The notes beneath the pieces are model-generated. The model made no database searches. It saw nothing but the letters and a program-made list of their open reading frames with translations, and was not told the origin of the DNA. Below, piece by piece: positions 1 to 38,235 of a stretch of 64,000 nucleotides of DNA (position 1 is its first letter; each line of letters starts with the position of its first letter). The position numbers and the translations under genes were made by a program. The stretch is from an uncultured Alphaproteobacteria bacterium (GTDB taxonomy: Bacteria > Pseudomonadota > Alphaproteobacteria > RF32 > CAG-239): the NCBI GenBank assembly GCA_944391495.1, contig CALXTU010000001.1, positions 59,981 through 123,980 of the forward strand, read 5' to 3'.

Positions 1-1
1 G

Positions 2-826
2 CCGAATGACATCAAGCTGGTGGCCAAATACATCAACGAGCAAAATGCCCGTTTGTCGCGTCAGGTGGCCATTTCGGTTAAGATTATGCAAGTTACGGTT
101 GATGACAGCGACAACTACGGACTTGACCTGAGAGCCACTTTTGATGACGGCGTCAGCTCTATCGGTATTACCGGAACTCAGGGAATTTCTGCCGAGGATA
201 TGACCTCGTCGCTGACCTGGGGTGTCATTAAAAACAATTGGACGGCCGATGCCATTATGCAGGCTATATCCCAGAAAAACCGTACGTCTCTGATTACCAG
301 CGGTACGGTTACAACCTTAAACAACAAGCCGGCGCCGATTCAGGTTACGCAGAAGCAAAACTATATCTCGGAGATGACCAAAACCAACAACGGTACCGAC
401 GGTACGAACTATGATATCTCGGTGACCACGGAGGAAATCGAAACCGGTTTTACCCTTGATGTTTTGCCGCGTATTCTGGAGCATGGCCGGATGCTGGTTA
501 TGTTCAATATGACGCTTTCGGATCTGTTGTCGCTGGAGCGCGTCAGCTTTGGTAACGAGGATGAAAACCAGTATATTCAAAACCCGATTGTCGAATCCCG
601 CGCTTTTACTCAGGAAGTCGCCATGACATCGGGAGAGTCGCTGATTTTAACCGGCTATGAGAGAGCCTCAACCGAGACCGACAAAACCGGAACCGGTTCG
701 GCGGATAATTCGCTGCTCGGAGGAACAGCTGCTGCCGAGAGAAGCCGGAATATTCTGGTTATTGTGTTGACGCCGGTTGTTTTGGAAACGCCGCTTTCGC
801 CGGAAACAAGAATGAGCATGAATTAA
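2..826 (+). CDS. Secretin (GspD/PilQ/PilN-R64 family), C-terminal part; gene starts upstream of the window
   Basis: Open frame with no stop back to nt 2. C-terminal hydrophobic/amphipathic block ...SRNILVIVLTPVVLE matches the conserved secretin C-terminal motif. First gene of a pilus/T2SS-like operon. Confidence 0.6.
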   Translation, partial: PNDIKLVAKYINEQNARLSRQVAISVKIMQVTVDDSDNYGLDLRATFDDGVSSIGITGTQGISAEDMTSSLTWGVIKNNWTADAIMQAISQKNRTSLITSGTVTTLNNKPAPIQVTQKQNYISEMTKTNNGTDGTNYDISVTTEEIETGFTLDVLPRILEHGRMLVMFNMTLSDLLSLERVSFGNEDENQYIQNPIVESRAFTQEVAMTSGESLILTGYERASTETDKTGTGSADNSLLGGTAAAERSRNILVIVLTPVVLETPLSPETRMSMN

Positions 827-849
827 CCACCTGACAGGAGCAAGCGGAA

Positions 850-2172
850 GTGCTGGAAGACGCAAAACTTTTAGATGAAGATTACGATGAAAGTTCCGGG
901 AAGCGGACATGGGGCACGTCGATAAACGTTGACGGCGTCAATTACGCGACCAGTCTTTTCTGGCAGCCGCTGCAAAATTCCGGCGATTATCTGCAGGAAG
1001 TCGAGGAAGCGTCAAATAGTATTCTTGAAGGTGCCGACCTGTTTTGTATTAAAGGCGGTAAGGCGCCGCAGTTCGGTATCTGCGTTTCGCACGAGGGTTA
1101 CAGAAGCGGTGAAACGGTGGCGGCGGTTGCGCTGGTAACGGCACTGTCCAACGTATCGTCTTTCGTGGCGGTGTTTAAAACGTCCGAGGGCTGGTGGTAT
1201 ACCTGCGTGCGCAACGATATTATCCTGTCTGACGGCGATATGCTGTTTTTGAATGAGGAAGAGGCCAAAAATCAGTTTATGTCGATGATGGCCGTTCCGG
1301 ACTGGGGAAAGAAAATTGCCCCCAAAGAATGGGGTATTGAAGAAACCGAAGAGCTCGATTTGGGCGAATTGATTGCCCGTGGTGCCAAGATTAAGCTGCA
1401 AAAGATAAAAGGGCTGCGCGGCTCCAAGCTGATTATGGTTGTCGTTATTTCGGCGGTTGTCGGATTGTGGCTGGTATCAAGCCTGATTGACAAACTGTTC
1501 CTCACTCCGGCAAAACGACCGGTGGTGGTTCCGGTGCGACCGAAAGTCATACAGCAGGTTGCGGTTAAAGAAGTTCCGAAACCGTGGGAAGAAATTAAAA
1601 ATCCGGTTCAGTTTATGCAAGAATGTTACGACGGCATTACCAAACTGGCAACAATTATGCCGCCGGGCTGGAAAATCGGCGTTATCAGCTGCTCGGGTTC
1701 GGCCGCGGCAACTTCGTGGACAAGAGAGGTCGGACCTTTGTCGTGGGCAGATGCAGCCATGAAAAACTCCGGACTGGAGCTTGCGGGATATTCGTTTGAT
1801 GCGAGCGGAAATTCGATGACGGCGTCGCTGCCGCTTAAGCCGGCCGAAACGCTGACGTCGCCGCCGGAAAAGAACATGACGGATCTGCGCAATGCCGTTA
1901 ATAACGAGTTTCAGTCCTTAGGACTGCCGATTTCGCTGGGCGAGGAAACGGTAAAATCTGCGGCACCGGCTCCGGCTGCCGCCAGGGGACCGCGGGCCGC
2001 ACCGGCCGCAGCCGAAGTGTTTAGGGCTTTAACGTTTAATTTTAATTCACCGCACAGTCCGCTGACCTGGATGCCTTTGTTAACAAAATATTCAGGTCTT
2101 GAAATTAGGATAATTACATATTCCCCAGACTCTGATGTTTGGCATTATGAGGGAGCTATCTATGTTTTATAA
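850..2172 (+). CDS. Bitopic inner-membrane assembly protein, GspL/BfpC/PilO(R64)-like
   Basis: GTG start. Single central TM (LIMVVVISAVVGLWLVSSL) with ~190-aa cytoplasmic N-domain and ~225-aa periplasmic C-domain, the GspL-type topology. Sits between secretin and ATPase genes. Confidence 0.4.
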   Translation: MLEDAKLLDEDYDESSGKRTWGTSINVDGVNYATSLFWQPLQNSGDYLQEVEEASNSILEGADLFCIKGGKAPQFGICVSHEGYRSGETVAAVALVTALSNVSSFVAVFKTSEGWWYTCVRNDIILSDGDMLFLNEEEAKNQFMSMMAVPDWGKKIAPKEWGIEETEELDLGELIARGAKIKLQKIKGLRGSKLIMVVVISAVVGLWLVSSLIDKLFLTPAKRPVVVPVRPKVIQQVAVKEVPKPWEEIKNPVQFMQECYDGITKLATIMPPGWKIGVISCSGSAAATSWTREVGPLSWADAAMKNSGLELAGYSFDASGNSMTASLPLKPAETLTSPPEKNMTDLRNAVNNEFQSLGLPISLGEETVKSAAPAPAAARGPRAAPAAAEVFRALTFNFNSPHSPLTWMPLLTKYSGLEIRIITYSPDSDVWHYEGAIYVL

Positions 2173-3505
2173 AATGAGAAATATTTTATTGGTAACATTG
2201 TCCTGTGTTCTGGCTTTCCCGGCGGGAGCGCTTAAAGCTCAGGGTTTGGTTTCTTTATCCGAAGAGGCCATGTTTGACGACGGGCTGGACACGGGAGACG
2301 AGCTTCCGGATCTGGGGCAGCCGGCCAAACCGACAGATGCCGACCACAGTAAGGCGCCGGCCGATGACACGGCTGAAATACCGCTGATTCAGCCTAAAGC
2401 AGCTCCGGCCCCGGTAACAGCGCCCAAACCGGCAGCAGCACCGGCAATTCCGACACCTCCGGCAACCACGGCGGCCTCCGGCGGTGATGCGGCAATAAAT
2501 TTGTTCGGCAATTCGGCGGAAGAAGAGGATTTTTCCAACAGCGACCTGTTTACCCAGATGTCCGACCTGGAAAAAAGAACGGCACTTTTGAATCTGGAAC
2601 TGCGTCGCGAGAAGCTGCAAAACGAGATTGAAGCGGTTAAAAACCAAAGACGGCAGGCTTTGCAGCAGGAAAAAGACAAAATTGAACAGCAGCGCCTTAA
2701 AAACATAGAGTTTGAAAAAGAGCAGGAGCAGAAAGTTTTGGTTGAACAGCAGAAACTGCGCGATTTGGACATTCAGTTTGAAACCCTGCGGCAGGAGAAA
2801 CTGCTCGGTTCTTATAAAAACTATATGCTGGAAGAAGTTCAGAAATGGATTGCCAACAACGGCCAGTTTTATAAACAGATTGACGAACTGCGGCAGTCCA
2901 AAAGAGACCTGACGGCAAATATGAAGGCTAAGATGAAAGCAGTGCAGGACGCCGCGCGGCAGGCACAGCAGGACTATACACTCAAGGTTAACGGCTATAC
3001 GAAAGAAATTAAAGACCTGAGGGCGCAGATTAATGTTTTGCGCAACCGTATTGCCTCCATGGAAAAAGAGCAGGAAGCCATGCTGCAGAATCCGTTTGCC
3101 AATGCAGAGCCTCAGGCTCAGAACGTTACGACAACGGTCAGCGACGATATATCCGCCGATGACAGCGTCACCAAAGAGCCGGTTGAGACCGATTTGTCCA
3201 AGCTTTATGCGGTGACGGAAATCCGCGGCCAGGGCGGCGAACTCATCGCCAAGCTGATTAACAAAAACGGTACGGCCTTTTATGTTAAAAGAGGAACGGC
3301 CCTGCAGACGGGACACGTCATTACCGACATTACCTCAACTTTTGTTGCGGCGGAAAAAGATGGCGAAAAGAAATATCTGTATTTCTCTGCCGGCGGAATT
3401 GTTCCGGTCGAAACGACAAAGTTTGAGCTTGATGCCGGGGCTGTTCCGGCGGCTGCCACTACCGAAAACAATACTTCGGGCGGACCGGTCGGCGGGAGTT
3501 TGTAG
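2162..3505 (+). CDS. PilP-like secretin-binding periplasmic protein with signal peptide, Pro/Ala-rich linker and long coiled-coil
   Basis: GAGGGAG RBS before ATG 2162. Signal peptide MRNILLVTLSCVLAFPAGALKA. Pro/Ala-rich low-complexity region, then about 200 aa of Q/E/K/R heptad-like coiled-coil. C-terminal block LYAVTEIRGQGGELIAKLINKNGTAFYVKRGTALQTGHVITDI matches the PilP/GspC HR-domain pattern. Confidence 0.45.
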   Translation: MFYKMRNILLVTLSCVLAFPAGALKAQGLVSLSEEAMFDDGLDTGDELPDLGQPAKPTDADHSKAPADDTAEIPLIQPKAAPAPVTAPKPAAAPAIPTPPATTAASGGDAAINLFGNSAEEEDFSNSDLFTQMSDLEKRTALLNLELRREKLQNEIEAVKNQRRQALQQEKDKIEQQRLKNIEFEKEQEQKVLVEQQKLRDLDIQFETLRQEKLLGSYKNYMLEEVQKWIANNGQFYKQIDELRQSKRDLTANMKAKMKAVQDAARQAQQDYTLKVNGYTKEIKDLRAQINVLRNRIASMEKEQEAMLQNPFANAEPQAQNVTTTVSDDISADDSVTKEPVETDLSKLYAVTEIRGQGGELIAKLINKNGTAFYVKRGTALQTGHVITDITSTFVAAEKDGEKKYLYFSAGGIVPVETTKFELDAGAVPAAATTENNTSGGPVGGSL

Positions 3506-3529
3506 CCTCAACCAGCACGGGATTTATCC

Positions 3530-5209
3530 ATGGCCGAAGAAGATACAGAAAATACTGACAACACTCCGGCAGCAGCATCATCCGGTCAAGATGCTGCTGC
3601 GGCGTCTTCCGGTCAACCGACAACGGCCGAAACAGGCGGCGGCTCCATTAATGAGATTTACTTTTCCAACGGCAACCGGTTGTTAACCCTGCCGGGATCT
3701 TCGCTGGCGGTGAACGACGACACCCGCCGTTTGCTGGCTTTGTTCTCGGACGGGCGTTTTCTGGTTGTCGAATCGCACAAATTTGACGGACGCGTCTTAA
3801 GTTTTGAGGTTTTGGCCCGCAAAAAGAAGATGGCCATTGCCAAACCGACCTATGTTTCGCAAAACGAGCTCAACGCCATTTATTCCATCGGTGAGCGCGC
3901 TCAGGCGGCGGAAGAGGTTTCGGCCGATGCCGAACTTGACCAGCTGCAAATGCAGAAAGACTTTGTCAACGTAGTTGCCCGCGCCGCCAGCAAAAAGGTG
4001 TCGGATATTCACGTGGTGGTGGCAGACAGCACGGTGATTATGTTCCGTGTCAACGGTATGATGCAGGTTGAAATGGAATATAACAAAGAATGGGGCGAAT
4101 CTTTTGTGCGCGCGGCTTTTGCTTCGGCCGATATTTCCGACTCAAACTATGCACAAAACGAATTCCAAGGCGCGCAAAAGCTGGGTTCCACACCGTTGCG
4201 CGGCTCCAAGGGCAAATTGATGCTGCCGCACAACGTGCTGGCTATCCGTCTGCAGTTTAACCCGATTGCGTTCGGTTCGCAATATCTGGTTATGCGTCTG
4301 TTGTACGCCGATGACAATCCGGACGGCTCCGGCGATCTGGCAAGCTTAGGTTTCGGCCAGTTTGAAGAAGATTTGTTTTACCGGCTGCGCGCGGTGCCGG
4401 TAGGGTTGAGCATTATTGCCGGCCCGACGGGATCGGGAAAATCAACCACGCTGCAGCGCAACATGATTAAGCTGTTGCAGGAAAAGAACTATGAGCTTAA
4501 CCTGCTGACGGTGGAAGACCCGCCGGAGTATCCTATTCCCGGCGCCCGGCAGATGCCGGTTACCAACGCCAACACCGAAGAAGAAAAAGCCGAGCAATTT
4601 ACCAAAGCCCTGTCGGCGGCGCTGCGATCCGACCCGGACGTTATTATGGTGGGCGAAATCCGCGCGCTGGCGGCGGCGCAGCTGACGTTTCAGGGCGCGC
4701 TTTCCGGCCACGGCATGTGGTCGACGCTGCACGCCAACTCGGCGCCGGCGATTATCAACCGTTTTCGTGATATGGGGGTTGAAACGTTTAAGCTTTTGGA
4801 CCCGGAATTAATCAAGGGGCTGATTTCGCAACGTTTGTTCCGCAAATTGTGCCCTCATTGCCGGATGTCGGTCAAAGAACGGCAGAATGATCCGTCTTTT
4901 CAGCGGCTGCGGACGGCGCTGGGGGATTTTGGCGTCGAGAATGCGTTTGTGCGCGGTCCGGGCTGCAAATTCTGCAACAATACCGGTATTAAAGGGCGTA
5001 TGTGCGTGCCGGAAATTATTTTGCCGGACGCCACGTTTCTTGAACTGATGATTAAAGGCGAAACCCGTAAGGCTATTGACTACTGGACATCTGATTTGAA
5101 CGGACGTACCTTAAAAGAAGCGGCGATGGAGCGTATGCTCAAAGGCTTGATTGACCTGGACGAAGTTGAACGCTGGTGCGGCCTTTTGGACCAGAGGCCG
5201 GCGTATTAG
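3530..5209 (+). CDS. Type II/IV secretion ATPase, GspE/PilB/BfpD/TcpT family
   Basis: Walker A GPTGSGKST, Asp box and His box. C-terminal tetracysteine CPHC...CKFC characteristic of GspE/PilB-type (not Tad/VirB11-type) ATPases. Confidence 0.9.
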   Translation: MAEEDTENTDNTPAAASSGQDAAAASSGQPTTAETGGGSINEIYFSNGNRLLTLPGSSLAVNDDTRRLLALFSDGRFLVVESHKFDGRVLSFEVLARKKKMAIAKPTYVSQNELNAIYSIGERAQAAEEVSADAELDQLQMQKDFVNVVARAASKKVSDIHVVVADSTVIMFRVNGMMQVEMEYNKEWGESFVRAAFASADISDSNYAQNEFQGAQKLGSTPLRGSKGKLMLPHNVLAIRLQFNPIAFGSQYLVMRLLYADDNPDGSGDLASLGFGQFEEDLFYRLRAVPVGLSIIAGPTGSGKSTTLQRNMIKLLQEKNYELNLLTVEDPPEYPIPGARQMPVTNANTEEEKAEQFTKALSAALRSDPDVIMVGEIRALAAAQLTFQGALSGHGMWSTLHANSAPAIINRFRDMGVETFKLLDPELIKGLISQRLFRKLCPHCRMSVKERQNDPSFQRLRTALGDFGVENAFVRGPGCKFCNNTGIKGRMCVPEIILPDATFLELMIKGETRKAIDYWTSDLNGRTLKEAAMERMLKGLIDLDEVERWCGLLDQRPAY

Positions 5210-5226
5210 GATAAGGATCGGAAATT

Positions 5227-6363
5227 ATGGCTGACGAAGAAGCTCTTAAGAGAAAACATCAATCAAAATCGCTGCAGGCAGCGATGAAAAAATTGAACAA
5301 GGCAGAAGAATATTATGCCCGGCTGATTATTCAGTTTTCAAACAAAACGCGGCTGAAGCTTTATCGCAAGATTGCCTCGCTGATGCGCAACCGCTTTTCG
5401 TTGATGGACGCTTTGGATATGCTGCACGACAGCGCATCAAACGGCGGCAAAAACCCCGGCGAACCGCTGGCGATTGCCATTGCCGCGTGGGGGCGCTCGC
5501 TCAACAACGGTAAAACTTTTTCCGAGGCGCTGAAAGGCTGGGCGCCGGACCGCGAACGTCTGATGCTTTCGGTGGGCGATGTCTCTGACCTGGAAGGCGC
5601 GTTGATGAACCTGATTAAAGTAACCGAAGGATCTACCAAAATGATCCGTCCGATTATCGGAGCGATTTCTTACCCGAGCTTTCTGATGATGATGGCGGTT
5701 TTGATTATTTACGCCATCGGCGTTTACATGGTGCCGCCGATGATGGACGCGGCGCCGAACGTCCGCTGGCGCGGGCTGGCTAAGAATCTGGTGGATTTGT
5801 CCGGCTGGATTAAAGACAACTGGCTGATTGCCTTTGCAGCGCTGCCGATTCTTATGGCTGTCATTTATTTTACCATCAGTATCTGGACCGGCAAAATCCG
5901 CGCTTTGTTTGACAATATTCCGCCATGGTCGCTGTATAAAAGCTTTGTCGGCATCAGCTGGCTGCTGGCGATGGCGGCGCTGATCAAGGGCGGCACGCCG
6001 GTTTCGACCGCGATGCGGGCGCTGCGCCGCGATGCAACCCGTTATCTTAAAGAGCGGATTGACAAAACACTGATCTTCATCAATAACGGTGACAATTTGG
6101 GACAGGCATTGGCCAAAACGGGCCTGAATTTTCCGGAAAAAGAGTTGATTGACGATTTGAAGATTTATTCCGAACTGGATAATTTTGAAGAGGCGCTGGA
6201 CAACCTGGCCAACGAATGGCTGGAAGAATCCGTCTATTCAATTGAGGAAAAAGCCGGCGTTTTAAACATGGTTGCCCTGCTGGCCATCGGCGGCGTTATT
6301 GCCTGGGCGGTTATGGGAACCTTTGATATGCAAGACCAAATTACCAGCAGCATGGGGAGTTAG
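5227..6363 (+). CDS. Inner-membrane platform protein, GspF/PilC/BfpE family
   Basis: 378 aa with two repeated cytoplasmic domains (LMDALDMLHDSASNGGKNP...GKTFSEAL pattern) and three hydrophobic TM segments. Immediately follows the ATPase. Confidence 0.7.
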   Translation: MADEEALKRKHQSKSLQAAMKKLNKAEEYYARLIIQFSNKTRLKLYRKIASLMRNRFSLMDALDMLHDSASNGGKNPGEPLAIAIAAWGRSLNNGKTFSEALKGWAPDRERLMLSVGDVSDLEGALMNLIKVTEGSTKMIRPIIGAISYPSFLMMMAVLIIYAIGVYMVPPMMDAAPNVRWRGLAKNLVDLSGWIKDNWLIAFAALPILMAVIYFTISIWTGKIRALFDNIPPWSLYKSFVGISWLLAMAALIKGGTPVSTAMRALRRDATRYLKERIDKTLIFINNGDNLGQALAKTGLNFPEKELIDDLKIYSELDNFEEALDNLANEWLEESVYSIEEKAGVLNMVALLAIGGVIAWAVMGTFDMQDQITSSMGS

Positions 6364-6365
6364 GC

Positions 6366-6971
6366 ATGGACATCAAACAAAAACTCAACCAGATAAAACA
6401 TAAGCTGCAGCACCTGCTCCGGCAACGCGGCCGGTTGATTGCCGCGGCGGCCGGCTCGGCAGCGGTTGTCGTGATTGTTGCGGTGCTGATTATCGGCGGA
6501 CAGCAGGATATCGGCGCGCAGGAAGCCGGACAGCAGATTATCAAACTGGCACAAAACATTCGCAACCGCTATCAAACCCGGCCGGATTTCTGGGGACTGA
6601 GCACGGCGGAGGTTATCCGGCAGAAGATGTATCCGTTGAGCATGACGGCGGAAGGCGGAAAGCTGACCGGATATTTCGGCAACCGGGTGCAGGTGGGCGC
6701 TGATGCCTCCGGCACGGCAGTGATGCCGACGGTGCGACGATTTGTGATTGCCTATAACGGCCTCAACCGCAAACAGTGCCTGGCGCTGGGGACATATAAA
6801 TTTACGCGGGATTTTTGGCTGGGCGTCAGCGGTATGACGATTGAAGCAGAGGGCGCGCAACGGCTGTTTGACTGGAGTTCTAAGGAGCTGGCGTTGCCGG
6901 CGGCCAAAGATATTGTCGGGAAAATTTGCCGAAGCCAAAAAAACAATATTATTTTTCACTTTGAACAATGA
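6366..6971 (+). CDS. Bitopic periplasmic assembly protein, GspM/PilN/PilO-like topology
   Basis: GGGGAG RBS. Short basic cytoplasmic N-terminus, one TM (AAAAGSAAVVVIVAVLIIGG), ~150-aa periplasmic domain. Translationally coupled to the platform gene. Not a pilin: no Glu at +5. Confidence 0.35.
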   Translation: MDIKQKLNQIKHKLQHLLRQRGRLIAAAAGSAAVVVIVAVLIIGGQQDIGAQEAGQQIIKLAQNIRNRYQTRPDFWGLSTAEVIRQKMYPLSMTAEGGKLTGYFGNRVQVGADASGTAVMPTVRRFVIAYNGLNRKQCLALGTYKFTRDFWLGVSGMTIEAEGAQRLFDWSSKELALPAAKDIVGKICRSQKNNIIFHFEQ

Positions 6972-7132
6972 TATTTACCATTAATTAAGGGATTAATTCT
7001 ATACTGAAACCAACATATGACTAAAGTCATAGGCATGATATTGTGGATTATGACTAATGGCAGAATTGCCGAAAGCGATTTTCTTTGATAAGATGAAAGC
7101 ATAATAACGGCAATTTTATGAGGAGAAAGACC

Positions 7133-7753
7133 ATGACTATTTTATCAAGAACTGAGCAAACAGGCCGTTCGATGGTGGAGATGCTGGGCGTGCTGGCGAT
7201 TATCGGCGTGTTATCCGTCGGCGGTATTTCGGGTTATTCAAAAGCGATGGCCAAATATAAACTGACCAAGGCTCAGGATCAGATTACGATGTTGCTGATG
7301 AACATTCGTACCGCTTATGCTACCAGTCCGAGTTATAGCGGGTTGACTACAGCTGCCGTAGCCGCTTACAACATCGCTCCGGGTGAAATGATTGTCGGGA
7401 CGGCCTCGATTGGTGATTCTGGCGCCACCGGCTCTGCAACTCTTAACGGCGCTTTCGGTGGTGCAGTAAATGTTGCGTCACTGGGAGCTCGTGATTCTTA
7501 CTTCTATATTCAGATGCGTGCGTTGGCACCGGAGGCCTGCCGTTCTTTGGCATCTTCTGACTGGGGTGCAGACGGTTTGGTTATGATGTCTGTCGGTGCG
7601 GATGCAGCGGTAGCTGTTGCAGATGATGACGTTGACCAAACTTGTACATCAGGCGGTGATAACTTCTGTGCGGGAGATCTGCCTTTGGGTTTAGCTACTG
7701 CAGCATCTCAATGTGATAATGCAATTAACCAGATTACTTGGGTTTACTACTAA
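7133..7753 (+). CDS. Type IV prepilin (type IVb-like size, 206 aa)
   Basis: AGGAGAAAG RBS sits directly before ATG 7133; the ORF-track start 7118 lies inside this RBS. Leader MTILSRTEQTG then cleavage-site consensus G|RSMVEML with Glu at +5 and hydrophobic alpha1-N (GVLAIIGVLSVGG). Four Cys in the C-terminal half are consistent with a D-region disulfide. Confidence 0.8.
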   Translation: MTILSRTEQTGRSMVEMLGVLAIIGVLSVGGISGYSKAMAKYKLTKAQDQITMLLMNIRTAYATSPSYSGLTTAAVAAYNIAPGEMIVGTASIGDSGATGSATLNGAFGGAVNVASLGARDSYFYIQMRALAPEACRSLASSDWGADGLVMMSVGADAAVAVADDDVDQTCTSGGDNFCAGDLPLGLATAASQCDNAINQITWVYY

Positions 7754-7857
7754 TAGTATGCAAGAAAGCTCCTCAAGACTTGCCGGTTTTATACCGGCAA
7801 GTCTTTTGTGTGTTTTTTGACTGTTATGCTTGACGGAGGTGACGGTTTTTAAAGCGT

Positions 7858-8016
7858 GTCATGTTGAGCGGGAGCGAAACATCTTAGAGATTCTTCGGGA
7901 CTTGCGTCCCTCAGAATGACGACTAAAATGTCATGTTGAGGAGCAAGGCGCCGAAACATCTTAGAGATTCTTCGCTAACGCTCAGAATGACAGGGAAGTG
8001 ACGCTCGGAATGACGG
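7858..8016. repeat. Family-A palindromic repeat, two tandem units plus a partial third
   Basis: Units 7858-7920 and 7930-7991 share gtcatgttgag...gaaacatcttagagattcttcg...tcagaatgac. Unit 1 carries the GC hairpin gggac-ttgc-gtccc. Related copies at 10382, 10777, 21887 and 37956. Confidence 0.85.
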
Positions 8017-10381: not shown

Positions 10382-10424
10382 GGCTTAGATTCTTCGGGGC
10401 TATGCCCCTCAGAATGACAGAAAA
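10382..10424. repeat. 43-bp direct repeat (family-A hairpin unit), upstream copy flanking the GIY-YIG gene
   Basis: ggcttagattcttcggggctatgcccctcagaatgacagaaaa. Near-identical copy at 10777-10818. Contains the gggg-ctat-cccc hairpin. A further degenerate unit (gtcatcctgagc...) follows to ~10480. Confidence 0.85.
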
Positions 10425-10494
10425 CGGTATCAGGAATAACGTAATCATATAGTCATCCTGAGCTTTAGCGAAGGATCTAAAGAGATAAAATGCC

Positions 10495-10782
10495 ATGAAA
10501 AATATGTATGTTTATATTATGTCAAATAAACCAAATGGTACTTTATATATAGGTGTTACCAATAATCTTATCCGGCGTGTTTATGAGCATAAAAATTCTT
10601 TAGTTCCCGGTTTTACTTCAAAATACAAATTATATAGTCTTGTCTATTTTGAATGTTTTGATGATGAAGAAACAGCTATTAAAAGAGAAAAAACTTTAAA
10701 AGGGTGGCTACGAAAGAAAAAAATAGAATTAATTATTCGTACTAATCCATCGTGGAGTGATTTATCCGGTTCACTGGTTTAG
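10495..10782 (+). CDS. GIY-YIG nuclease family protein (UPF0213-like), 95 aa
   Basis: YVYIMSN...GTLYIGVTNNLIRRVYEHK is the GIY-YIG signature. Strongly AT-rich relative to its surroundings. The stop codon lies inside the downstream direct repeat. Confidence 0.8.
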   Translation: MKNMYVYIMSNKPNGTLYIGVTNNLIRRVYEHKNSLVPGFTSKYKLYSLVYFECFDDEETAIKREKTLKGWLRKKKIELIIRTNPSWSDLSGSLV

Positions 10783-10818
10783 ATTCTTCGGGGCTATGCC
10801 CCTCAGAATGACAGAAAA
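10777..10818. repeat. Direct repeat, downstream copy flanking the GIY-YIG gene
   Basis: ggtttagattcttcggggctatgcccctcagaatgacagaaaa, one mismatch versus 10382-10424. Followed by a partial unit ctcagaatgac at 10828-10838. Confidence 0.85.
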
Positions 10819-10851
10819 AAAGAATACTCAGAATGACGATAAGAAAAAATA

Positions 10852-10910
10852 GCAGGTTCGAGAACTTGTCGCTGCCGACAATTAAAAAAACAGCCCTCTT
10901 CGAGGACTGT
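10852..10910. repeat. 59-bp direct repeat carrying two hairpins (ttgtcg-ctgc-cgacaa and an A-tract/T-tract terminator-like stem), copy 1
   Basis: gcaggttcgagaacttgtcgctgccgacaattaaaaaaacagccctcttcgaggactgt. Second copy at 11030-11089 with three substitutions. Confidence 0.8.
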
Positions 10911-11029
10911 ACCCGTTGTAAGGGCTTACGCCCGGCAGGACTGACCTCGCTTAAGCTCGGCCGCTGCGCCGTCGCTGTTGCGGCGATACCCCCGTATCGC
11001 CTGCGCCGGCTGGTCAAACCTGCTCTCTC

Positions 11030-11095
11030 GCAGGTTCGAGAACTTGTCGCTGCTGACAATTAAAAAAACAGCCCTCTCTGAGGACTGTTTTTTTA
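11030..11095. repeat. 59-bp direct repeat copy 2 including an intrinsic-terminator hairpin (acagccctc-tc-tgaggactgt + T7)
   Basis: Identical architecture to 10852-10910. The T-run at 11089-11095 abuts the 3' end of tRNA-Val on the opposite strand, so it can terminate in both directions. Confidence 0.7.
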
Positions 11096-11097
11096 AT

Positions 11098-11174
11098 TGG
11101 TGGGAGTGGCAGGACTCGAACCTGCGACCTCTACGATGTCAACGTAACGCTCTAACCACCTGAGCTACACACCC
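11098..11174 (-). tRNA. tRNA-Val (anticodon GAC)
   Basis: The reverse complement folds as a cloverleaf: acceptor GGGTGTG/CACTCCC (one T-T mismatch), D-arm GCTC...GAGC, anticodon stem TTACG/CGTAG with loop TTGACAT, T-arm GCAGG-TTCGAGT-CCTGC, encoded CCA. Confidence 0.85.
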
Positions 11175-11373
11175 GTATTATGAAAATCTTAATAATTCTG
11201 TCGCAGGCGAACCTGCTCTTGCTCCTAAGCTTCGGCGCTTTACGCCTTCGCTAACTCGCTGCGGTCACTCGGTTTGTAACGTTTATTTCGCGGCGCTGAC
11301 GCTTGCTTATAAACTAACAAACTCTCGCCTTTCGTTGAAAACCGCTCCACCGGAGCTGTTTTCCGCCTCAAGC

Positions 11374-11494
11374 CTCTACGATGTCAACGTAACGCGACTG
11401 GCCACCTGAGCTACACACCCGTATTATGAAAATCTTAATAATTCTGTCGCAGGCGAACCTGCTCTTGCTCCTAAGCTCCGGCGTTTTACGCCTT
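11374..11494 (-). pseudogene. Duplicated tRNA-Val 5' half (anticodon stem to 5' end, D-arm altered) plus ~75 bp of upstream/promoter sequence
   Basis: About 121 bp, near-identical to 11129-11249: ctctacgatgtcaacgtaacgc...cctgagctacacacccgtattatgaaaatcttaataattctgtcgcaggcgaacctgctcttgctcctaagct. The D-loop tctaa is replaced by gactgg. Confidence 0.8.
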
Positions 11495-11665
11495 CGACGT
11501 CAAACCTAATGTTTACATCAGTTTAACGCGGAACAAGGTATTCAATAATATATCTTTGTCTTAAATGCAAGTCTTTTTTTGCGCTATTAGCGAATATTTA
11601 ATTTTTGCCGCTTTATAATAAAAAATACTCTTTTCTGCGGTTGTGTTATTAAGGAGCAAATCTGC

Positions 11666-21785: not shown

Positions 21786-21886
21786 CCGAATTAAAAATTT
21801 TCTCACTTTTTGTCGCGTTGTATAAAAATTTGAAGCCCCCTTATCATCGGGAGGAATGCCTCCCGATGAGCGATGACGATACCTTG

Positions 21887-21948
21887 TCATGTTGAGCGAA
21901 AGCGAAACATCTGAGAGATTCTTCGGGACTATCGTCCCTCAGAATGAC
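21887..21948. repeat. Family-A palindromic repeat unit (plus partial unit to ~21975)
   Basis: gtcatgttgagcgaaagcgaaacatctgagagattcttcggg-actat-cgtccctcagaatgac. Preceded by a second hairpin catcgggagg-aatg-cctcccgatg (21848-21871). Confidence 0.85.
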
Positions 21949-21974
21949 AAGGATGGAATGCGCAGAATGACAGA

Positions 21975-24390: not shown

Positions 24391-27300
24391 ATGACTAATA
24401 CATCTAACTGGCCAAGAGAAGTCATTGATATTGAACAATTAAAAACCGTTTTCGACGATAACAATATTAATATAACTGATGAATTGGACATTGTTTTGCG
24501 GCAAAGGGCTCATGTCGATTTACCTTACGGCAAACGCTACCAGCATGTAAGATTTGCCACAATTCTGGGCGCTGTTTATGTTCCTGACAGTATTTATAAA
24601 GAAAAAGAACGCGAAAAACACTTAAAAAAGCTCCGCCGCTATTATGACCAAAATGCGACAAAATCTTATATTAAACTGGAAACGGCCGAATTTTACTGTA
24701 ATTTTCTGGATCAAATCAAAGACAGCATTGAACAGCGGCACCCCGGAGTCAAATTACCCTTGATATCTATTGATAAGCCTTTGGAAAAGCAAGAACATTT
24801 CCATGGATCTGGCTCAAAAAAAGAGAAAAAGACCAAAACCCTTAATGATAAAATCGTTAAAATAGACCGTTATCAGGTTATTAATCCTTCGTGTTTACAA
24901 AAACTATCAGCTGATGAACTGTCCAAGCTGCTTGACGAGGTTTTTCAGAAGCGTAGTGCAGATCTCACCTCTACTGCCGATAAAGATAAACTGCTTAATC
25001 TTATATCCAATATTAAATATGCCTTTGCTTATGCACAAAATGACGGCAAAAGTTTAGAACAAAATTCCCATTTAAATCAGGCGCGACGGCTATATAACTA
25101 CCGAGCCGGACAAAACCTCACTCCGCAAACCCAAAAGCTTTATGTTACTTATATGGAAGCGGTTGAGGAAAGACTGAGAAACGAGCACCCTGATTATCAG
25201 GTTGTTTATGATGAAATTCCGTTGCTTTATGAAAACAACCAACCAGAACCCAGACCAGGACCAGGACCAGGACCAGGACCAGGACCAGGACCAGGACCGG
25301 GACCGGAACCGGGGCCTGAGCCTAAGCCGAGACCGGGGCCTGAGCCGAATAAAAAAACTCTGGACGGCTATACCTCGGACGAATGGACCCAGCTGTTGGA
25401 TTCGGCGGTAAAAACGGCTGTTGTTGAAGAAGAAAATCTGACTGAAGGAATTGCCGTTACTTCACTTAAAGAAGTTTTGGGCAAAAAATTTCCCGACAAT
25501 TTTGATACAATGTCTTTGGACGAGATAGAAAGCGAGGTTTTGGCCAAACTCAATCCGGCACAAATAGCACAGTTTAATATTAAAGTTACCGAAAAGGCAC
25601 AAACACTGGCTGAATGCCTGCCGCCGCACTTTTTGACCTTTACGGCCAAACAAACCGATGCGGCTCTGGGCAAAAACGGTATTGACGATGACCTCAAACA
25701 GACGCTAACCGGGCAGCAGGAAATTTTGCGCAGTGCCATAAAAGATATTATTACGCAATATCATACCGGTGTTGTTATTGATGCCGATAATGCGGCGGGT
25801 GTTTATGACGGTCTGAAAGAGATGCTCGCCTATGCCAAGGCTCATAATCTCGGTGAAGCGGAAAAAATCAGCGGTATTTTGGCCAAACTGGAAGAAAGCA
25901 TTAAAGAATATGATGCCAACAACGGTTTGGACAAAGTTACCGAGAACAATCTCGAGGCTGTCAACAAAGCTTATGACACGACGAAAACAGATGTTGACGG
26001 TATCCTTGCAAAAAGCGACTGGGAAACGCAGTTTACAAATATTCTGGATGATGATACTAAAGAAATATTTAAGCAAATCACTTTTCCGGAAACAACAGAC
26101 GAAAACGGAAACAAAACTCCGGCTGAAGAGAACAAAAAGCTTTTTGTCGAATTGATTTTGAACAAAGCCGCCCAACAGACCGCCTGCTCATCGCATGATA
26201 AATCCGGCAATGATTTAAAAAGTGTTTTAAACGAACAAATCAAAGAAACTGCCGTTGCCGAAATCTTTACATTAATGGCTGCGGAAGAGGCTGTTAAAAT
26301 TAACGGAGACCCTAATCTCCGCGCTGAATTGACGGTATCGCCCGGCGATAATATTGCGGCAAAGAAACAAAAACTCGCGGCTTATATATCAAACAAGCCG
26401 GCGGCCACCGCTGTCAGCAAAGATGCTCTTGCCGGTTATTTTGCCGCTGCGGTCAATCGTCAGTCGCTATTTGCCAACCGCCTGGCAACCAAGCTGAATA
26501 ACCGCGGTGCCGGCGTGCTCAAAAAAATGTGGCAACCTTTCCAAAAGCTTGATAAAACCTGTATCAACAGATTTGGCCTGCTTTATACCGTTCCTCGCGG
26601 CATTTTCAAAAATTCACTGCAAAATCTGCCTTGGAGCGCATTAAACGCAGTTGCCAGAGTTGCCGCTTTTTCACAAGTCGGCACCCCGTGGGGAATGGCC
26701 TGTGTTGCCGGATATGCCGCTTATAGCCTGGGAACAACGGCAATCCGCATGATCAGACAATATAAAAAGATCAAAAAACAAGATAAGAGTATGACTCCCG
26801 GAAAATATCTTAAAAACAACTGGTCCGCCATGGCTTTGTCGGTGGTCGGAACGGCGGTATCGGTTATTCCGGGGCTGAGTACCGGCAGCGAATTTTTTAA
26901 AGGCGGACTGGAATGGATGAGAAATACCGGCATGCTTGAACGAACCGGTTTTCTGGGAATGACAAAAGCCAGTGCCGGCCTTATCGGTGCCGGGATGTTG
27001 GATTCGACCATCCGGGGCGCGAAAGCTCATCATGCAGCCGGTAAAGGATGGTTTAAATCTATTGGGGCAGCATTAGGATCTTCGGTTCTTTCCAGTGCGG
27101 CAGGTATTGGTGTGGGCATGGGCTGTGCGACCGGTGCCAACGAATTATTAAATTCCGGCATGAATTTGTTTGGAGATGTCAAAACACAAAATATTCCTAC
27201 CGAATCTTATGAACCTGACAATCCGGATCATTCCAAAGAACAAATTTCTCCCGGAGAATATGATCCTGCTAATCCGAGCCATAGCAAAGAGGCTATACCG

Positions 27301-28332
27301 ACAGACAAACTGGGTATCGGAACAGCCGAAGATTTAACCAAATTGTCCCCTGATGAACTGGCGGCCAGAGGTTTGGTCAGAGAGGATGCCTCGGCTAATG
27401 AACCCGGTGCCTTTTTGACCAGGGAAGAAGTCAGGGCTTATACGACTCATGATTACAGCCAGGAGGAACATAATTTTGCCGAAATGCGCAATTCAGATCC
27501 CCGCTTCAGCGAATTCCTCGAGAGATATCATGTTGCATCTGACTTGCAGGATCCCGCTAATCCGGACAGCGTTTCCGCAACAGCTACGGATAAGATGGCT
27601 CAGGCCATTGACGCCATTGCCGACAAGCATCCTGAAATGCAAAGTGATATGGGTAACGGCAAGTTGCAGAATAATACACAAATGCTTATGTATAAATTGA
27701 CGCAAATGGCTTATCTGGCACCCAATACCGATGCCATGACAACCGACGGAATCCCGGTCGGCGAACAATTCGGCTATCAAAACGAAGATGGTTCGTATAC
27801 GACCTATATGGATTTGATTAAAGAGGCTGTCAATGACGGAAAATTCAGCAACCCTGAAAAAGCCTATGAGGTTTTGATGAAGATTGAAGACCATGTCGGC
27901 GGACAATTGGATAACAGTGTAAACGATATGGGTAAAGTCGATATGTTCGGCAACCAGATTGAAACAGGCAGAAACGTTAATTCCTATCAGGAAAACGATG
28001 CCGGTTATACGAAGCATGAACACCCTGGACAACAGGCCGAATATGAGAAGATTTCCCGGTTTGAAAAGACTACGGAAACAACTTATATGCCTTATAATCC
28101 GTCAATTGATCTTTATAAACAGGTTACCGAGGGAAAAGAGGTGCTGGCCCGTGTTATGGGTAATCACGGCAGATACGAAGAAGGACAGCTTAAACCTGAT
28201 GTTGTCAAAAAAATGCCGGGCATTTCGCAAAATGCCGAAAACAGCAATAATTCCGGCACAACGAATTCTAGAAAAGGTAACATATTTACCAGAATTTTCC
28301 GCCGCGGCGGTAATGGTAACGGAAGACAATAA
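24391..28332 (+). CDS. Giant hypothetical protein (1313 aa) with Pro-Gly repeat linker and central multi-helix hydrophobic domain; effector-like candidate
   Basis: AT-rich ORF inserted between dnaK and dnaJ, opposite in orientation to both. In-frame PGPGPG repeat from the (ccagga)7 microsatellite. About 170 aa of Gly/Ala-rich hydrophobic helices around residues 730-900. Duplicated 13-aa motif YEPDNPDHSKEQI / YDPANPSHSKEAI. No signal peptide. Confidence 0.6.
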   Translation: MTNTSNWPREVIDIEQLKTVFDDNNINITDELDIVLRQRAHVDLPYGKRYQHVRFATILGAVYVPDSIYKEKEREKHLKKLRRYYDQNATKSYIKLETAEFYCNFLDQIKDSIEQRHPGVKLPLISIDKPLEKQEHFHGSGSKKEKKTKTLNDKIVKIDRYQVINPSCLQKLSADELSKLLDEVFQKRSADLTSTADKDKLLNLISNIKYAFAYAQNDGKSLEQNSHLNQARRLYNYRAGQNLTPQTQKLYVTYMEAVEERLRNEHPDYQVVYDEIPLLYENNQPEPRPGPGPGPGPGPGPGPGPEPGPEPKPRPGPEPNKKTLDGYTSDEWTQLLDSAVKTAVVEEENLTEGIAVTSLKEVLGKKFPDNFDTMSLDEIESEVLAKLNPAQIAQFNIKVTEKAQTLAECLPPHFLTFTAKQTDAALGKNGIDDDLKQTLTGQQEILRSAIKDIITQYHTGVVIDADNAAGVYDGLKEMLAYAKAHNLGEAEKISGILAKLEESIKEYDANNGLDKVTENNLEAVNKAYDTTKTDVDGILAKSDWETQFTNILDDDTKEIFKQITFPETTDENGNKTPAEENKKLFVELILNKAAQQTACSSHDKSGNDLKSVLNEQIKETAVAEIFTLMAAEEAVKINGDPNLRAELTVSPGDNIAAKKQKLAAYISNKPAATAVSKDALAGYFAAAVNRQSLFANRLATKLNNRGAGVLKKMWQPFQKLDKTCINRFGLLYTVPRGIFKNSLQNLPWSALNAVARVAAFSQVGTPWGMACVAGYAAYSLGTTAIRMIRQYKKIKKQDKSMTPGKYLKNNWSAMALSVVGTAVSVIPGLSTGSEFFKGGLEWMRNTGMLERTGFLGMTKASAGLIGAGMLDSTIRGAKAHHAAGKGWFKSIGAALGSSVLSSAAGIGVGMGCATGANELLNSGMNLFGDVKTQNIPTESYEPDNPDHSKEQISPGEYDPANPSHSKEAIPTDKLGIGTAEDLTKLSPDELAARGLVREDASANEPGAFLTREEVRAYTTHDYSQEEHNFAEMRNSDPRFSEFLERYHVASDLQDPANPDSVSATATDKMAQAIDAIADKHPEMQSDMGNGKLQNNTQMLMYKLTQMAYLAPNTDAMTTDGIPVGEQFGYQNEDGSYTTYMDLIKEAVNDGKFSNPEKAYEVLMKIEDHVGGQLDNSVNDMGKVDMFGNQIETGRNVNSYQENDAGYTKHEHPGQQAEYEKISRFEKTTETTYMPYNPSIDLYKQVTEGKEVLARVMGNHGRYEEGQLKPDVVKKMPGISQNAENSNNSGTTNSRKGNIFTRIFRRGGNGNGRQ
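25255..25296 (+). repeat. Perfect hexanucleotide microsatellite (ccagga)x7, in frame, within the giant ORF; degenerate ccggga/ccggaa/ccgggg units extend to ~25350
   Basis: Read directly: ccaggaccaggaccaggaccaggaccaggaccaggaccagga. Confidence 0.95.
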
Positions 28333-35676: not shown

Positions 35677-36425
35677 TACTTTTCTCCGTCACGCCGCCAA
35701 TCGCCGGCAACCGCCTGCCATACGGCCAGCCCTGCGGCCGCAGCCGTTTCCGCCCGCAGAATACGCGGTCCGAGGCTGATGTTTTTTACCCATGGATGCC
35801 GGTTCAGCGCCGCAGCCTCATCATCACTGAAACCGCCTTCGGGGCCCACCAATAATGCCGCCGGACGACCGGCAGCCTCGCCAAACGCCGTTAAAGCCTC
35901 TGTTCCGGTACGCCGCTCATCCATAAAAAACAACAAACGACCGGGCTCCCATGACTGCAGCAAACTACCCAAATCAACCGGCTGCGCGATTTCCGGAACA
36001 CTTAAACGACCGCATTGCTCCGCCGCTTCTACCGCCTGAGCGGCAAAACGTTCGGTTTTTACCTTATCAGCATTAGTCCGCGCGGTCAACACCGGAATTA
36101 TTTTAACAACACCGAGTTCTACCGCTTTTTCAATAACAAAATCCGTTTTGTCCTTTTTCAGCGGCGCAAACAGCAACCATAAATTATTGTCTCTTTCGGG
36201 AAGACGCTTCCGGCTACCTACCTCAACAAGCGTTTTCTTTTTGTCGGCCGCGGCAATGCGGCAGTCAAACTCACCGTCGACGGGGTTAAAACAGCTTATA
36301 ACACTGCCGGTCCGGCAACGCATAACATTGCACAGATAATGAGACGTTTTGTCCGGAAGCTCTATCAAGCTTCCGGGCTCAAGCTTTTGTTTCACATATA
36401 ATCTGATTGCGCGGTTGTCCTTCAT
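35676..36425 (-). CDS. rsmE: 16S rRNA (uracil1498-N3)-methyltransferase RsmE
   Basis: C-terminal LLVGPEGGFSDDE...LGPRILRAETA motif of the RsmE SPOUT family. Confidence 0.8.
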   Translation of the reverse strand: MKDNRAIRLYVKQKLEPGSLIELPDKTSHYLCNVMRCRTGSVISCFNPVDGEFDCRIAAADKKKTLVEVGSRKRLPERDNNLWLLFAPLKKDKTDFVIEKAVELGVVKIIPVLTARTNADKVKTERFAAQAVEAAEQCGRLSVPEIAQPVDLGSLLQSWEPGRLLFFMDERRTGTEALTAFGEAAGRPAALLVGPEGGFSDDEAAALNRHPWVKNISLGPRILRAETAAAAGLAVWQAVAGDWRRDGEK

Positions 36426-37955: not shown

Positions 37956-38016
37956 GTCATTCTGAGGGACGAACGTCCCGAAGAATCTCTTAGATGTTTC
38001 GCTCCGCTCAACATGA
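37956..38016. repeat. Family-A palindromic repeat unit, inverted orientation (plus partial unit to ~38057)
   Basis: gtcattctgaggg-acgaa-cgtcccgaagaatctcttagatgtttcgctccgctcaacatgac is the reverse complement of the 7858 and 21887 units. Confidence 0.85.
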
Positions 38017-38235
38017 CAAGATGGATGCTTCGTCGCTATGCTCCTCAATATGACGAGGAAACGTCTCTGTTCTGCGGAAAATATCATCTGCGATATCATT
38101 TTTTGCTTGAAAAATAAATATTTGTATGTATAAATGTCTTCACTTAGCCTGTCGGGGTGCGCCGGCCGGTTTCGTATGTGGTTCGCACAAGTCCGCCGAT
38201 ATTTTTCGGGCCTGGCATTTTTGAAATAATATTTT

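Follow-up and report, generated by a model that had tools for sequence, protein, structure and literature searches.

Dispersed hairpin repeats around an ssnA homologue in an uncultured gut alphaproteobacterium are probable Ssn-related motifs with an interrupted stem

The 64,000-nt stretch of contig CALXTU010000001.1 analysed here (the window) comes from an uncultured alphaproteobacterium found in animal-gut metagenomes. It harbours a family of dispersed hairpin repeats that very probably are Ssn-related motifs (SRMs), i.e., hairpin sites recognised as single-stranded DNA (ssDNA), on one strand, by the homologue of the nuclease SsnA encoded amongst them. The Ssn ssDNA nucleases have as their prototype SsnA of Neisseria meningitidis, a single-domain GIY-YIG protein of 94 amino acids (Chenal et al., Nat Commun 2025, PMC11893778). 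The target of SsnA is a hairpin repeat, NTS (CGTCATTCCCGCGMAVGCGGGAATCYRG; dRS3 forms part of it), which it binds solely in single-stranded form and on just one of the two strands, cutting a few nt further upstream; for cutting, the three nt ahead of the palindrome are important, and for binding, the C behind it (PMC11893778). SsnA reduces transformation by NTS-bearing DNA, and its homologues across bacteria are flanked by similar motifs, the SRMs (PMC11893778). The Ssn system has been known since 2025, but the class of hairpins with an interrupted stem that we report here, with its matching protein motif, is described neither in PMC11893778 nor in the survey of CGTC-tagged repetitive extragenic palindromes (REPs) by Di Nocera et al. 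(BMC Genomics 2013, PMC3733652).

An earlier note, made from the letters of the window alone, had described a palindromic unit of ~62 bp at five intergenic loci, in both orientations and with inner loops that differ between copies. The five loci exist, the loops do differ, a search for repeats turns up the family in either orientation, and every intact, partial or decayed copy is located between open reading frames (ORFs). The length of ~62 bp is real too, but it is that of two different half units, inverted and 3 nt apart: the true repeating unit is a half unit of 26–33 nt. In order, it consists of 5′-GTC, the first arm of a 5-bp stem (ATNNT), GA(G), a variable inner segment, (C)GA, the second arm (ANNAT) and CT. 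The half-unit pattern GTCATNNTGAGN{4,20}CGAANNATCT has 11 copies in the window against 0.00 expected (100 shuffles), far above chance. The 11-mer CTCAGAATGAC, with at most one mismatch, gave 12 matches in the window versus 0.64 expected; two further one-mismatch matches (41884 and 44344), both inside ORFs, are at chance level.

Eight of the 11 half units pair up as four inverted doublets of 62–63 nt each (Table 1). In all four, a half unit with an ATGTT/AACAT stem faces one with an ATTCT/AGAAT stem across a 3-nt gap, the GTC tags pointing outward. The unpaired GTC 5′ of the palindrome and the C straight after the stem are conserved in 11 out of 11 half units, the tag reading TGTC in nine of them, CGTC in one and AGTC in one, while the inner segment is hypervariable amongst copies, within the window and across phyla. 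What had been counted as another 0.5 unit at the end of the first locus is a partial copy of the tag and first arm, like the two others listed in Table 1.

Table 1. Hairpin repeats and the ssnA homologue in the window (positions count from the first nucleotide of the window).
Feature	Position	Strand	Remarks
SRM doublet 1, + half	7858–7884	+	GTCATGTTGAG-CGGGAG-CGAAACATCT
SRM doublet 1, − half	7888–7920	−	GTCATTCTGAG-GGACGCAAGTCC-CGAAGAATCT; 3-nt spacer before; tags outward
SRM doublet 2, in tandem with doublet 1	7930–7991		halves 7930–7961 (+) and 7965–7991 (−)
Partial tag + first arm	8004–8014	−	GTCATTCCGAG; 23 nt past doublet 2
Solo half unit	10387–10418	−	ATTCT/AGAAT stem type
Left-end half unit of ssnA cassette	10452–10478	+	GTCATCCTGAGCTTTAGCGAAGGATCT; ATCCT/AGGAT stem type; ends 16 nt ahead of the ATG
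ssnA homologue	10495–10782	+	95 aa; single-domain GIY-YIG; motif KGWLRKKK
Right-end half unit of ssnA cassette	10781–10812	−	ATTCT/AGAAT stem type; inverted with respect to the left end
Partial tag + first arm	10827–10837	−	25 nt past right-end half unit
SRM doublet 3, downstream of tRNA-Arg	21886–21948		halves 21886–21912 (+) and 21916–21948 (−)
Partial tag + first arm	21961–21971	−	23 nt past doublet 3
SRM doublet 4, between cmk and rpsA	37956–38017		halves 37956–37988 (+) and 37992–38017 (−); orientation opposite to doublets 1–3
Decayed third half unit, abutting doublet 4	38018–38057	−	

Folded as ssDNA, each half unit forms a two-tier hairpin: an outer 5-bp stem, a 2 × 2 GA/GA internal loop and an inner stem-loop of 6–12 nt. 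The outer stem is supported by covariation. Of 100 distinct units from loci that were chosen without any DNA pattern, with a search that did not demand pairing, 93 have a fully paired outer stem, as against a mean of 36 (maximum 49) with the 3′ arms shuffled, and these units include eight different outer-stem sequences. At gathering thresholds, Rfam identifies nothing but two tRNAs in the window and, at permissive thresholds around the first locus, one weak match only, on the terminator of the pilin gene. A hammerhead-like core (CUGA...GAAA...GUC), judged by eye, was rejected because the CUGANGA box is absent.

The gene that accounts for these repeats had been listed in the earlier note merely as a GIY-YIG neighbour. 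It does adjoin the repeats, but it encodes an SsnA homologue and is bounded by them, with one half unit at each end, tags outward, and a stop codon (TAG, 10780–10782) that overlaps the right-end half unit. The Pfam GIY-YIG domain spans residues 4–76 of the 95-aa protein (E 6.5e-17), and there is no second domain. Against the chromosome of Neisseria gonorrhoeae, tblastn with the window protein gave 49.4% identity (E 1e-20), and in a pairwise BLASTP with the gonococcal SsnA orthologue, 42 of 85 residues are identical without a gap (E 8e-31), values that place it within the homology criterion of PMC11893778 (E < 1e-10). The gonococcal orthologue is 94 aa long, is surrounded by nine exact copies of the NTS consensus, and has Y6, Y17 and E64, the catalytic residues that were mutated in N. 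meningitidis SsnA (PMC11893778). The corresponding Y7, Y18 and E65 of the window protein are invariant in 37 homologues, with spacings of 11 and 47 residues as in SsnA. Its AlphaFold2 model (pLDDT 95.3) has the GIY-YIG fold. On these grounds, we have classed the gene as a homologue of ssnA, and the repeats as the SRMs that belong to it.

The nearest solved structures to the model are UPF0213 BH0048, Slx1 and UvrC-N, and no Ssn structure was found in the PDB. NCBIfam gave a sub-threshold match to a group I intron endonuclease model and nothing else; membership of UPF0213/YhbQ was not adopted, the match to 1ZG2 being weak (E 1e-4). The Ssn family corresponds to cd10448 (PMC11893778). Literature searches under the sequence strings of the repeat itself, or under COG2827/UPF0213/YhbQ, returned nothing relevant. 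The gonococcal sequence used for comparison stems from a chromosome mislabelled as a plasmid; PLSDB has two such records of 2.17 Mb, NZ_CP119140.1 and NZ_CP119142.1.

The repeat-gene-repeat layout is shared by homologues at 61–69% identity in Melioribacter roseus, in a metagenome-assembled genome (MAG) of Ignavibacteriaceae and in a Kiritimatiellia MAG (right end only), the stem sequence of the flanking repeats differing by lineage. For a wider sample, metagenome contigs were scanned with the family alignment: 587 of 600 candidates were confirmed, and 77 kept loci could be assessed. A forward GTC-hairpin-C site is located within 150 nt upstream of the homologue in 62 of the 77 loci and an inverted one within 110 nt downstream in 51, with both sites extant in 42.

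The hairpins at these genes fall into classes. Class 1, with a continuous stem of at least 7 bp and the tail ATCC, is Neisseria-like and was found at 45 of 81 metagenomic gene copies; class 2, with the interrupted stem seen in the window and the tail ATCT, at 17; and a related form, class 2b (ATTGCGAG...CGAAGCAAT), at six, while 13 copies have no classifiable site. The class never differs between the two ends of one gene. The published SRM search sequence, HGTCWYN(0-2)YYVSBRHN(0-5)WNVSBRGN(0-2)RNCYNB (PMC11893778), matched 31 of 71 class-1 sites and none of 27 class-2 sites at these loci. Class 2 thus falls outside the published motif, which is strict in general. The only match of the motif in the window, at 35687, is away from all repeat loci and looks like chance.

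Hairpin class goes together with sequence features of the protein. Three alignment columns, positions 75, 70 and 72 (window numbering), separate the classes best. At position 75, all 46 class-1 loci have W and all 25 class-2/2b loci have K or R; position 70 is mostly K or H in class 1 and mostly G or A in class 2/2b; and position 72 is N, K or S in class 1, L in class 2 and S in class 2b. Written as a motif, class 1 has KxWxRxWK and class 2 KGWLRxKK, and the window protein, with KGWLRKKK and class-2 sites, agrees. In the model, these three positions occur at the junction of helices 58–70 and 73–83, just past the catalytic E65, interleaved with the invariant K69, R73 and K76. Amongst named records, motif and class agree in five of five informative cases: Planktothrix agardhii (KGWLREKK; class 2), Spirosoma oryzicola (KGWRREKK; class-2-like) and, with xxWK and class 1, Azospirillum lipoferum, Photobacterium and N. 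gonorrhoeae. As shared ancestry was not controlled for, the covariation provides a specificity hypothesis and not a demonstration.

In P. agardhii, the ssnA homologue with its class-2 SRM arrays is on plasmid p1 (L253; NZ_LR882964.1, 18447–19516), inside a defence island, with an MmeI-type restriction-modification gene on one side and DISARM drmA on the other. The class-2 half-unit type GTCATTCTGAG...CGAAGAATCT was found in at least 120 IMG/VR contigs; no Ssn gene occurs beside these copies at the 80 viral loci checked, an absence that is uninformative because repeats far outnumber genes.

Comparison of strains indicates that the repeats turn over. MAG E19__bin150 is 98.5% identical over 342 nt, and E04__bin174 represents a sister species (~80%). 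The ssnA locus is syntenic, between genes for a patatin and a formylglutamate amidohydrolase, in 10 out of 10 contigs listed, of the 20 that have the exact protein. At locus 1, strains harbour one or two doublets, and also hybrid doublets; in two strains (L001 and L035) doublet 2 is present and doublet 1 absent, the homology breaking exactly at GTCAT, and the gene upstream depends on the strain, being a pilin allele (193–211 aa), RloB or Fic. In L243, the tRNA-Arg locus carries a second, mosaic doublet whose left half is like that of the cmk locus and whose right half is like that of locus 1. Doublet 4 shows no differences among the three strain contigs that cover it (L238–L240), and the adjoining decayed unit is the most diverged part of the cmk-rpsA spacer between strains, the remainder being nearly identical. 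Near ssnA, L004 and L008 have an upstream tract of 84 nt, the first ~33 nt of which duplicate sequence 3′ of the gene, and in the window a 43-nt repeat (10382–10424), which holds the solo half unit, is 98% identical to 10776–10818 at the 3′ end of ssnA. The suggestion that the repeats mark recombination hot-spots fits these comparisons, in which the doublets differ in number and make-up and homology is interrupted at a repeat, although it is not proven by them.

Copies exist beyond the window as well. A second array of two doublets is extant in the same species 3.5–3.6 kb upstream of the window start (L250, 5504–5630), and the sister species has an array of four doublets on an unrelated contig (L034). 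Window positions 1–7753, together with L250 5504–16904, contain a type IVb pilus cluster (TcpQ, secretin, PilO-like, T2SSE, T2SSF and a PilS-type pilin), and as the second array lies left of the window start, this ~11-kb cluster is bracketed by SRM arrays; an integrase gene and a TrbL-like gene occur just outside the left array. Homologues that are 82–84% identical to the window protein are located after a TrbL-like gene and after an autotransporter gene, each within dense repeat arrays.

How such sites would work is suggested by Neisseria SsnA. Once the strand that carries the hairpin is exposed, as happens in incoming transforming or conjugative DNA and also in intermediates of replication or repair, the folded hairpin would be bound by the enzyme. 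A nick in that strand would follow, a few nt 5′ of the GTC tag; the tag would govern cutting, and the C behind the palindrome, binding. A doublet would offer one site per strand, with the predicted cuts just outside, and arrays beside variable genes may break up or redirect recombination there. Single-strand specificity, binding, cut position and the effect on gene exchange are all carried over by analogy, and nuclease activity and mobility are likewise inferred. The expected effect on recombination at the flanked loci, which also derives from Neisseria, agrees with the strain data. A role at the level of DNA is in keeping with copies that are situated outside transcription units, have no terminator features, vary between strains and adjoin strain-variable genes.

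Several points weigh against the repeats being SRMs that function in this way. The folding energies of the half units are modest, −2.8 to −7.3 kcal/mol. The sites that have been tested biochemically in the literature are of the continuous-stem type only (Neisseria, Wolbachia), and all 11 window copies escape the published SRM motif. The weight of that failure is limited, because the motif also misses 40 of the 71 class-1 sites and is an operational search pattern, not a functional definition. Exposure in incoming DNA presupposes that this alphaproteobacterium takes up DNA. The copy count, 15 intact half units, extends over ~73 kb of this species and is not genome-wide, and a scan of a genome collection with the strict 22-nt doublet junction GAAACATCTNAGAGATTCTTCG found it only three times in the representative MAG of the sister species and in only 11 stretches across 185,579 species.

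Those stretches include MAGs labelled Spirochaetales, Oscillatoriales, Clostridia, Chthonomonadaceae and Micrarchaeota (L027–L033 and L037), several of them from rumen or gut samples, and no Ssn gene occurs within the 8-kb stretches around the junction in these. The occurrence across phyla may reflect horizontal spread or contamination of bins.

One alternative is compatible with the repeats being SRMs and differs only in that the enzyme itself would spread them. The ssnA cassette (half unit, gene and inverted half unit; 361 bp) would be a mobile unit akin to an insertion sequence (IS), and the doublets would be gene-less derivatives resembling REPINs (inverted REP doublets), copied after Ssn nicking and recombination-dependent repair. 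An IS-like layout of NTS-ssnA-NTS has indeed been noted (PMC11893778). A doublet in effect consists of both cassette ends joined by 3 nt, and the metagenomic cassette L204 combines an ATGTT-type left end with an ATTCT-type right end, just as the doublets of the window do. The occurrence of the 82–84% identical homologues in unrelated contexts, the presence or absence of doublets between strains at two loci and the identical 22-nt junction in MAGs labelled as distant phyla would also fit mobility. Against this, the gene keeps to one syntenic locus in the contigs listed for this species, no clean pair of empty and filled sites was recovered, and the variant doublets are mosaics of half-unit types; such mosaics, together with a gene at one syntenic locus, speak for gene conversion between copies rather than for copy-and-paste. 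The two predicted cuts, moreover, fall on opposite strands, for an enzyme that needs ssDNA, and target-site duplications are absent: abutting direct repeats reach a maximum length of 0 nt at all four doublets, at the array and at the cassette. To our knowledge, GIY-YIG enzymes have no strand-transfer chemistry. We consider an IS-like cassette possible but rather doubtful.

In being palindromic and intergenic, and in forming inverted doublets and arrays, the repeats are like REPINs and bacterial interspersed mosaic elements, which would suit classical REPs mobilised by a RAYT (REP-associated tyrosine transposase, of the IS200/IS605 Y1 type). Their tag, however, is GTC (TGTC or CGTC) and not GTAG, CGTC-type repeats never flank RAYT genes (PMC3733652), and the gene that they bound encodes a GIY-YIG nuclease and not a Y1 transposase, although the ORFs of the window were not all scanned for a RAYT and the rest of the genome was unsearched; this origin appears very improbable. 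Somewhat less remote, though still improbable, is a role in RNA, as intrinsic terminators or as mRNA-stabilising 3′ hairpins, which the earlier note had also proposed. The repeats do form hairpins, and several are downstream of genes (those for the pilin and tRNA-Arg, and ssnA), but no copy is followed by a run of Ts or scored as a terminator, both orientations occur at equivalent positions, Rfam has no match for them, and SsnA does not bind RNA (PMC11893778). At two loci, in our own reading, the doublets lie beyond the terminators of their neighbours: the pilin gene has a separate one at 7775–7805, and doublet 3 is situated between what we read as the terminator hairpins of two convergent units, where the terminator scan listed none.

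Least credible of all is that the repeats would be miniature transposable elements with inverted repeats (MITEs) in the classical sense, descended from a DDE-type transposon with terminal inverted repeats. A short, dispersed, strain-variable unit with inverted termini (GTCAT...ATGAC) invites that comparison, which had been drawn in the earlier note, yet the check for target-site duplications was negative at the doublets, in the array and at both cassette ends, no transposase with matching ends was found, and an oriented hairpin site, present twice in inverted arrangement, accounts for the termini. Bacterial MITEs such as the Correia elements of Neisseria are likewise short, intergenic and strain-variable and have inverted termini, but they have target-site duplications and a DDE transposon origin, neither of which is seen in the window repeats.

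Amongst known systems, the window repeats and their gene are closest to NTS/SRM and SsnA. They share a single-domain GIY-YIG enzyme of ~94 aa with the same catalytic residues, an oriented hairpin whose 5′ tag is GTC and whose palindrome is immediately followed by a C, the repeat-gene-repeat layout, and intergenic clusters beside variable or surface-protein genes. The stem differs, as that of the Neisseria type is continuous, GC-rich and 8–9 bp long, whereas in the window it is A/T-rich and 5 bp long, followed by the GA/GA loop and the variable inner hairpin. The tail is ATCT in the window copies versus ATCC in described SRMs, and the protein motif is KGWLRKKK versus KKWNRAWK in the Neisseria type. 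Most window copies, furthermore, are arranged as tight heterodimeric doublets with a 3-nt spacer, unlike described NTS/SRM.

To call the family REP-like, as the earlier note did, was right in kind, given the GTC tag, the hairpin and the tags-outside dimers of the CGTC-tagged REP superfamily. The CGTC-tagged REPs cover the same superfamily as NTS/SRM, include dRS3 and the Rickettsia elements RPE-4 and RPE-6, and are noted for tags-outside dimers without an associated transposase (PMC3733652). The window family has in common with them the unpaired (C/T)GTC tag, stems that start with A-T pairs, the predominance of “HH” (tags outside) dimers with frequent heterodimers, the prevalence in Alphaproteobacteria and the lack of an associated transposase gene. 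It nevertheless fits none of the families CGTC-1 to -4, which have an uninterrupted 8–9-bp stem, a loop of 4–5 nt and a CCA-like tail, the tail of the window family being CT; and PMC3733652 gives no associated protein, whereas an associated gene is identified here. With REP/REPIN and RAYT, the likeness is one of organisation: a gene in single copy, bordered by hairpins which the encoded protein recognises as ssDNA, and dispersed gene-less inverted doublets without target-site duplications. RAYT systems differ in the GTAG tag and in their HUH/Y1 transposase with covalent strand transfer, as opposed to a hydrolytic GIY-YIG nuclease, and mobility is documented for REPINs but not for SRMs.

Partial copies of the tag and first arm (10–12 nt) occur 22–27 nt upstream of intact SRMs, sometimes as “stutters” of two to four in tandem. 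They were counted 39 times upstream versus seven times in a downstream control window, accompany hairpins of either class and are spread over several phyla (the window, L245/L246, L025, L224, L235 and L253), and sit on the side where Ssn reportedly cuts.

A second hairpin repeat family abuts SRM doublets, at 21832–21880 in the window, at ~400–500 in L006 and upstream of the ssnA homologue in L248/L249. It consists of GAAGCCCCCTTA, a palindrome and G(C/A)G(G/A)TGAC, such that its opposite strand also starts with GTCA; it has a single copy in the window and several in other strains and species, and it may be the other repeat family of the earlier note. Next to the ssnA cassette, the tRNA-Val region (10838–11560) is internally duplicated: a 59-nt repeat (10852–10910 and 11030–11088) carries the terminator hairpin of tRNA-Val, and a 95-nt repeat (11156–11250 and 11402–11496) holds its 5′ end and upstream region, which implies a truncated second copy of tRNA-Val near 11375–11420. 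The distance from ssnA to the next gene ranges from 358 to 884 nt among strains. Elsewhere, a 12-nt tandem repeat (ACCAGG...) at 25242–25319 lies within a 1313-aa ORF (24391–28332), where we read it as a Pro-Gly run in frame.

Taken together, class-2 hairpins and KGWLRxKK proteins might constitute a distinct branch of Ssn specificity, with residues 70, 72 and 75 deciding which hairpin class is read, and the 62-nt doublets might derive from the ssnA cassette as REPIN-like elements that lack the gene and are still spreading or being homogenised by Ssn nicking and recombinational repair. That would make them a GIY-YIG counterpart of RAYT/REPIN, and the partial tag-arm copies would be scars. We put this combined proposal forward tentatively, as something that could well turn out otherwise.

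A system of this kind being known already, the main value of the finding is explanatory: a dispersed repeat family is accounted for by a gene located among the repeats. Since the published motif misses a widespread hairpin class, which flanks about one quarter of the Ssn genes sampled, censuses of SRM genomes are probably underestimates. The covariation of hairpin class with three protein positions offers a testable guess at the specificity determinants of enzymes that are under development as ssDNA tools. The gain, loss and mosaic reshuffling of doublets in natural strains, with homology breaks at repeats, constitute field evidence for the role in genome dynamics that has been proposed for such repeats, and the arrays on both sides of the type IVb pilus cluster recall Neisseria, where repeats surround genes for surface proteins.

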